Part shown: positions 13,802 through 13,902 of the stretch, in pieces
Layout: every line of letters begins with the position of its first letter
How positions within the stretch are numbered: position 1 is the first letter of the stretch
Assembly (NCBI GenBank): GCA_944393265.1
Contig: CALXZO010000002.1
Location: forward strand, 5,264 to 69,263
Direction: 5' to 3'
From: an uncultured Clostridia bacterium
GTDB taxonomy: Bacteria > Bacillota > Clostridia > TANB77 > UBA1234
Length of the DNA: 64,000 nucleotides
Translations under genes and position numbers: made by a program
The notes under the pieces: model-generated
The model's input: only the letters and a program-made list of their open reading frames with translations
What the model was told of the DNA's origin: nothing
The model's database searches: none

Positions 13802-13902
13802 GAACAAAAATGAAAATCTAAAAAATCAAAGATTTTTGATTTTCATATGTCGAGATTTGCTCGACTTTAAATATGGAATTTTTGTTGTTTCATACGGAAA
13901 GT
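13802..13902 (+). repeat. Copy A of a ~100-nt intergenic repeat element (AT hairpin, GTCGAG-N5-CTCGAC palindrome, conserved 3' box TTTTTGTTGTTTCATACGGAAAG)
   Basis: A near-identical 5' end (GAACAAAAATGAAAATC) and the 3' box are shared with 58810-58903. The 3' half is shared with 36709-36752 and 14255-14280. Confidence 0.75.

Follow-up and report, generated by a model that had tools for sequence, protein, structure and literature searches.

Group IIC introns, ribozymes with a length of several hundred nucleotides, mostly carry a gene for a reverse transcriptase. They insert at intrinsic terminators, in the orientation of the terminator, and show neither target duplication nor inverted repeats (PMC4424553). 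Insertion sequences of the IS200/IS605 family and their ends-only derivatives (PATEs) also have no inverted repeats and make no duplication; they insert 3' of a short AT-rich sequence and carry hairpins at their ends, and short derivatives that encode no protein are moved in trans (PMC7290912). In the Bacillus cereus group the Firmicute-specific interspersed repeats bcr1 to bcr3, of about 100-400 bp, have traits of mobile elements and a TTTAT motif, and bcr1 is also found on plasmids (PMC6542083). IS110-family elements such as ISPpu9 are described as inserting site-specifically next to or into REP hairpin repeats and as having no classical inverted repeats (PMC12288879).

We found a hairpin-rich, non-coding repeat with copies scattered over the genome of a gut Clostridia bacterium that is uncultured, an organism represented only by gut-type metagenome assemblies. 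The window, by which we mean the whole 64-kb stretch of DNA that was analysed, is 32% G+C, and its genes, nearly all on the minus strand, are housekeeping and sporulation genes (ileS, glnS, rpoB/C, ribosomal proteins, RNase J, SpoIID, SpoVT and others). The smpB gene lies on the plus strand at 21747-22283, and no tmRNA, tRNA or rRNA gene was detected within the window. A preliminary description of this DNA had noted that two intergenic copies, A and B, share one end, and both do begin on the plus strand (at 13802 and 58810) with the identical 17-mer GAACAAAAATGAAAATC. Using blastn-short, A and B align in three colinear blocks, of 23 nt (95.7% identity, E=4.6e-5), 16/16 nt and 22 nt (90.9%), and when the direct-repeat families of the window are ranked, the two at the top consist of this repeat. 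The copies are longer than first described: homology continues for about 46 nt past the earlier limits, to 13948 in A and 58948 in B, and ends at the T-tract of the terminator hairpin upstream. When intact the element is about 147 nt long, and its natural reading sense is the minus strand of the window.

In a genome of 32% G+C, an element composed largely of A and T runs might resemble other low-complexity, AT-rich intergenic DNA by chance. This reading, to which we give practically no credence, is refuted by the E-values and the shuffles. Leave-one-out nhmmer searches gave E-values of 1e-5 to 1e-10, the best non-training matches being A (E=4e-10), C (E=1.5e-8) and B (E=5e-5), and independent copies of the element score 1e-21 to 1e-40 in profile searches. 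A 23-nt degenerate core pattern matched three times in the window and not once in 100 shuffles. Across 11 copies, a doubtful copy D included, the flanks are unrelated and two boundaries are common to all.

Read on the minus strand, every copy has its parts in the same order, H1, an A-rich centre, H2, H3 and a tail, which form two domains: a long 5' hairpin and a second domain with two hairpins. H1 is a 15-bp hairpin near the 5' end with one bulged base and a small apical stem. In copy A, RNAalifold and pair counts place its 5' arm TTTCATAGGAAAGTA at 13933-13947 (minus strand, as are all parts of A given here) and its 3' arm TACTTTCCGTATGAAA, with one bulged G, at 13888-13903. By the same methods both partners have changed in four of the 15 pairs, and pairing is seen in 89% of cells; copy K has wholly lost the apical part of H1 and kept the stem. 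The centre, CAACAAAAATTCCATATTTAAA in copy A (13866-13887), is the most conserved block of all copies and reads AACAACAAAAATTYCATATYTAAAG across them. A conserved "3' box" had been described here. The sequence is present, but in the minus-strand reading it is really the H1 3' arm plus the A-rich centre, and its consensus was one position off in A (CGGAAAG, not C(G/A)AAAAG). H2, seen directly in the sequence, is a 6-bp GC hairpin, GTCGAG-CAAAT-CTCGAC, at 13849-13865 in A; 81% of its cells are paired and two pairs are changed on both sides. This palindrome had been recognised in the preliminary description, as had an AT-only hairpin, and we found both to be as described. The latter, H3 (13812-13844 in A), is built of 7-nt units (GAAAATC AAAAATC ... 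GATTTTT GATTTTC) whose number varies among copies. The 3' tail of A, ATTTTTGTTC (13802-13811), forms the right end, and likeness to all other copies stops here. The AACAAAAAT of the centre can pair with ATTTTTGTT of the 3' tail, a pairing that the predicted minimum-free-energy structures of copies A, F and E contain; this helix is 96% paired and has no covariation.

The element thus runs from 5'-ATTTCATAGGAAAG to CATTTTTGTT(C)-3', the right end also being given as CATTTTTGTTC; right end joined to left end would read CATTTTTGTT(C) followed by ATTTCATAGG. There are no terminal inverted repeats, since the left end ATTTCATAGGAAAG is unrelated to GAACAAAAATGAAAATC, the reverse complement of the right end. 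The folds of A, F and E have z-scores of -4 to -6 relative to shuffled sequence, with both strands equally stable. Over nine copies 89% of stem cells are paired, compared with 43-50% when partners are slid, and seven pairs are changed on both sides, compared with 3.3 in shuffles. Because double changes are somewhat more numerous than in shuffles, some selection on structure is possible.

Copy A (13802-13948, minus strand; nhmmer E=3.5e-37 with a nine-copy model, boundaries from the all-copy comparison) lies in the ileS 5' UTR, with the T-box terminator on one side and the ileS ribosome-binding site on the other. An Rfam search places the ileS T-box leader at 14018-14187 (minus strand; 81.7 bits, E=4.7e-18), and a terminator scan places its hairpin at 13957-13983 (minus strand), with a T-tract, TTTTTGTTT, that ends at the start of copy A. 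The preliminary description had left room for the repeat to be part of a known leader or terminator motif. Rfam gives only this T-box, near A, and copy A lies outside it, beginning past the T-tract at 13948; no family matches the element itself. Copy A is a 147-nt structured insert downstream of the T-box switch, and evidently it is tolerated there. The score of the leader is below the Rfam gathering score (93), and a standard scan therefore fails to report the leader; its antiterminator/terminator pairing ATAAAG/CTTTAT is recognisable by eye. Over the 620-nt spacer between glnS and ileS, the window and six other strain contigs differ at only two positions, 13870 and 13887; both are in the H1 loop region of copy A, and the bases of the other strains there are those of copy F.

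Copy B (58810-58948, minus strand; E=2.5e-23 with the nine-copy model) is full length but older, being 81% identical to A and having lost H2. On one side of it is a terminator and on the other the promoter of a recD2-like gene. A hairpin with a 13-bp stem followed by TTTTTT is directly upstream (58955-58997, minus strand; from a fold of the upstream 70 nt), and the promoter, TTGATA-17-TATAAT, is downstream at 58746-58718. The recD2-like helicase itself appears to be divided between two ORFs, 56469-57014 and 57061-58653 (minus strand), one product being of 530 aa with helicase domains and the other of 181 aa with SH3_13 and UvrD_C_2. This split is identical in four other assemblies; a frameshift, programmed splitting or decay to a pseudogene could each account for it. 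Copy C (36690-36799, minus strand; E=4e-19 with the nine-copy model) had been taken for a 3' half; in the sense of the element it retains the 5' two-thirds, with H1, the centre and the start of H2, and the 3' third is missing. It begins at the rpoC terminator (36800-36829) between convergent genes, the upstream gene being rpoC by Pfam. A fourth copy had been claimed at 14255-14280. We find this relic, D (14250-14337, minus strand), doubtful and without statistical support: the 3' arm of H1 is absent, and it scored E=0.098 when left out of a three-copy model and gave no match at E<5 with the nine-copy model. D sits behind the glnS terminator and could be an old relic, as it too follows a terminator.

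The similarity is not confined to the window, a possibility that the preliminary description had raised, as seven copies lie outside it: one in the flank, five on a 20-kb contig (L048) and one in a different Clostridia species. Copy E is 7 kb past the right end of the window in the same species. A scan of one genome per species with the 23-nt core pattern found copy F behind a merR gene (L013/L048) and copy K, in the other species, behind a conjugative-pilin gene (L011/L041). On L048, nhmmer found copies G, H and I and a degenerate relic, J, in addition to F. This contig is probably from the window's species, judging from shared samples and a coverage of 4.16 versus 4.21 in one sample. Nine copies were detected in about 105 kb assigned to the species, an assignment that is only probable for 20 kb of this DNA, and extrapolation from this DNA gives a density of probably about one copy per 10 kb. 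The earlier claim of an unannotated, dispersed and structured family is borne out by these copies at unrelated loci and by Rfam, which gave no matches at gathering score in the 64-kb window and only 6S RNA and tRNAs on L048.

The 6S RNA gene on L048 (4348-4544, minus strand) adjoins copy G. In relatives the 6S gene (L008:13332-13532, L009:13344-13544) immediately follows ileS and is convergent with a DUF4015 gene. The ileS of the window's species has other downstream neighbours, which indicates that the 6S/ileS locus has been rearranged. L008 and L009 encode the same 1037-aa IleS, but none of the genes upstream of it are shared: one contig has a HepT/MNT toxin-antitoxin pair there, the other PMT_2 glycosyltransferases. 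Only L009 has space for a T-box leader.

The most distinctive feature of the element, absent from the preliminary description, is that copies lie at the T-tract ends of intrinsic terminators, in the orientation of the terminator. We found that 8 of 11 copies (D counted) start no more than 12 nt past a stable hairpin, where its T-tract ends, and are co-oriented with the terminator, a hairpin being counted when it had dG <= -8 and at least 6 bp and ended within 12 nt upstream of the copy. As a control, 600 random intergenic positions and strands were drawn from the same DNA, and 9.3% had such a hairpin (binomial P ~7e-7). The insertion point is 6-12 nt beyond the stem, at the end of the T-tract. 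Orientation is set by the terminator and not by a fixed chromosome strand: on L048 copy I is on the strand opposite to F and G, and each of the three is behind a co-oriented gene and hairpin. The older copies E, H and J have no co-oriented terminator ahead of them. Left flanks carry TTTTT or a one-mismatch variant in 8 of the 11 copies, a signal that is weakly specific in a genome of 32% G+C, and five copies are preceded by TTTAT. To our knowledge, group IIC introns represent the sole other elements described as homing to terminators.

Comparison of filled and empty sites showed that insertion involves a discrete, sharply bounded unit. In L041 and L042 copy K is between the terminator of the pilin gene and the next gene. 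In two related lineages (L043/L044 and L046/L047, with pilins 86% and 81% identical) the terminator and flanks are the same and the element is absent. Cutting exactly 116 nt from the filled site restores GGGACAC-TTTTTT-ATTATC, with a 2-nt (AT) register ambiguity, which indicates that insertion was at the end of the T-tract and made no duplication. The copy K locus is the one site that gives a clean empty/filled comparison. There is no target-site duplication at this site, and the flanks of the other copies do not match each other. The preliminary description had proposed a MITE-like or REP-like small mobile element and had looked to its termini and target-site duplications as a check. Insertion is shown directly by the empty sites in two lineages and the termini are now defined from all copies; strict MITE or REP labels do not fit a 147-nt two-domain unit that has no terminal inverted repeats and makes no duplication. 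Reading these sites as insertions presumes that the empty state is ancestral.

At ileS, in a relative whose IleS is 85% identical, only about 45 nt separate the T-box terminator from the ileS start codon, with no insert, and in the window the corresponding gap holds copy A. The MerR relatives of copy F were sought as a second empty site, and their downstream context is not syntenic. Just past the empty pilin site, a near-perfect palindrome of about 130 nt, TTAGACTCGGGGACGTCCATTAAAAGTCTAAGAATT ... AATTCTTAGACTTTTAATGGACGTCCCCGAGTCTAA, is present at L043:10350-10500 and in L044, and L041 and L046 lack it. Possibly a different hairpin element occupies this intergenic site there.

The copies differ in age. 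A, G, F and K are 93-97% alike, across species too, and A is 97% identical to K in the other species compared with 74-82% to B, C and E in its own genome. The DNA common to the A/K and B/C/E loci is the element alone. Copies C, H, I and J are truncated or degenerate. This pattern of identities, together with the truncated and degenerate copies, suggests bursts of insertion from a conserved master, followed by decay. It agrees better with horizontal spread than with conserved RNA genes. Among stem mismatches G.T (27) and A.C (22) are equally frequent, and there is thus no sign of selection on one RNA strand; the mismatch pattern is what would be expected of decaying copies of a structured master sequence.

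Consistent with the earlier view that the element is too short to encode anything, we found no usable ORF in the copies on either strand. Short ORFs of both strands, among them one for MKQQKFHI (minus) and one for MEFLLFHTESI (plus), were considered as small peptide genes and have some synonymous-looking differences. None has a ribosome-binding site, there is an early stop in copy C, and the start codon of the longer one is lost in K. No conserved promoter was found on either strand; a weak TTCATA-17/18-CATAAT occurs on the plus strand of A and C only, is not conserved elsewhere and is deleted in K. The wobble-pair counts given above were also used to look for the strand of a putative RNA and gave no signal. 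Judged by eye, neither parS, dif or attC core sites nor Spo0A boxes fit.

The family is expanded in one lineage of spore-forming uncultured gut Clostridia, its spread is patchy, and at least one further species of Clostridia carries it too. No copy was found in 69 kb from three relatives of the window's species (IleS 85-86% identical), and none in 40 kb from relatives of the host of K, compared with one in that host. The core pattern gave eight matches in JGI metagenomes, all chance, and four patterns run against viral contigs gave nothing or chance seeds that the family model did not extend. A blastn search with copy A against 72,556 plasmids gave no match, nor did a search against phages. 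No presence/absence polymorphism was seen among strains of the window's species, where all copies are fixed, and the strains thus give no support for recent activity there. Strains do differ at a TraX-family gene (L026/L028:6435-7041), which is two overlapping ORFs in some and one in others (L027/L029); this suggests a strain-variable frameshift. The repeat appears to fragment metagenome assemblies, as three contigs begin or end within a copy (L049:1-105, L053:2-122 and L056:1707-1768). Another contig, L039, stops 10 nt past the rpoC stop codon, just short of copy C.

Our data suggest that these repeats are probably non-autonomous mobile DNA elements of about 147 nt that home to terminators, are moved in trans and decay after insertion. 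The element would be mobilised by an enzyme encoded elsewhere in the genome, and recognition would probably be on single-stranded nucleic acid, that is a hairpin with its T-tract. One conceivable route is a single-strand HUH/Y1 transposase of the IS200/IS605 type; a reverse transcriptase, as with group IIC introns, is also conceivable but less likely. The window and its annotated flanks contain no transposase or reverse transcriptase as an autonomous partner. We more tentatively raise the possibility of a class of miniature elements that use the termination site, a hairpin and the end of its T-tract, as a landing signal, without inverted repeats or duplication, by means of an enzyme not so far linked to such targeting. 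The landing signal would then lie at about the end of the terminated RNA, the place at which RNA polymerase pauses and leaves the non-template strand exposed.

The repeats might more specifically be PATEs of an IS200/IS605 insertion sequence, moved by its Y1 HUH transposase as single-stranded DNA and inserted 3' of TTTTT; terminators would be favoured because the T-tract is exposed as single-stranded DNA beside the hairpin. The 3' hairpin of the element ends 10 nt short of the right end, a placement that resembles the right end of IS608. The absence of inverted repeats and duplication and the hairpins by both ends are traits that define the IS200/IS605 family, as is insertion 3' of a specific short sequence, for which the TTTTT or near match of 8 of the 11 left flanks is a weakly specific candidate here (PMC7290912). 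We nevertheless regard this as unlikely, because the two end hairpins, H1 and H3, are unlike in sequence, where a PATE would have similar subterminal hairpins for one TnpA to bind, H1 begins at nucleotide 2 and leaves no space for a guide sequence 5' of the hairpin foot, no tnpA or tnpB, and no full-length partner with these ends and a Y1 HUH transposase gene, was found in the roughly 255 kb examined, and Rfam gave no match to IS605-associated RNAs. Moreover, T-runs are ubiquitous at 32% G+C, and a bare TTTTT target leaves the adjacency to hairpins unexplained. Descent from a group IIC intron, or dependence on one, whose reverse transcriptase would copy the RNA of the element into DNA at terminators, would bring the same target and orientation rule (PMC4424553), and would agree with the lack of duplication and inverted repeats and with A-rich segments complementary to the T-tract. 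This is very unlikely for an element of 147 nt, far too small for a six-domain group II ribozyme, without a 5' GUGYG or domain V/VI; no Rfam group II intron matched at E<=10 in 13700-14450, and no reverse transcriptase was found nearby.

It might also be that the repeats do not move at all and are functional structured RNAs kept by selection behind terminators, either as sRNA genes or as cis modules such as backup terminators, insulators or stabilisers of transcripts. The strong predicted structure of A, F and E, the stem pairing relative to slid partners with seven pairs changed on both sides, the very conserved centre, the resemblance of H3 and its U-run to a weak terminator and the unchanged state of the copies in all strains would all agree with this. 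Against it, a conserved promoter is lacking on both strands, copies lie in 5' UTRs, between convergent genes and antisense, and many are truncated or degenerate; G.T and A.C mismatches are equally frequent, orthologous sites in relatives are without the element, and no Rfam family includes it. We therefore consider selection for a function in place improbable as the explanation, and retain that of a mobile element.

Insertion behind a terminator interrupts no gene and so provides a safe landing site. That a 147-nt element which encodes no protein follows the target rule of group IIC introns suggests either a second independent solution or a hitch-hiker on known machinery, and either could point to an enzyme that recognises a hairpin with a T-tract. 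Insertion also places a structured RNA in leaders such as that of ileS, which may affect expression and annotation in uncultured gut Clostridia.

Among the known systems, REP, BIME and REPIN sequences and the MITEs (Correia, ERIC, RUP, BOX) resemble the element as small, non-coding, structured intergenic repeats often found near the 3' ends of genes. REPs are GC-rich hairpins of 20-40 nt, often in inverted pairs, that are moved by RAYT transposases, whereas the element, at 147 nt, is rich in A and T, has two domains and is found as single units. Classical MITEs, which derive from DDE transposons, carry terminal inverted repeats and target duplications, and the element has neither. IS110-type elements encode a recombinase and target a defined sequence by an RNA guide; the left flanks of the element, in contrast, have only a hairpin and a T-tract in common. 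The likeness to bcr1 to bcr3 is that of interspersed Firmicute repeats of similar size with mobile-element traits, and of the TTTAT that precedes five copies; that motif has no duplicate at the element's right end, no sequence similarity was detected, and the plasmids searched with copy A, which gave nothing, are expected to include those of the B. cereus group. By analogy, single-strand transposition of the IS200/IS605 type is the closest known chemistry, the differences being the dissimilar end hairpins, the left one abutting the end, and the lack of a tnpA/tnpB partner in the DNA examined. We know of no description of a terminator preference in that family. With group IIC introns the element shares the target rule, the orientation and the absence of duplication and inverted repeats, but it is 147 nt long, starts with AUUUCAUAGG and has no group II domains and no ORF, and no Rfam group II intron matched in the window at gathering score. 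We therefore regard the element as a variant of the small non-autonomous mobile elements that is placed in neither the IS200/IS605 family nor group IIC.
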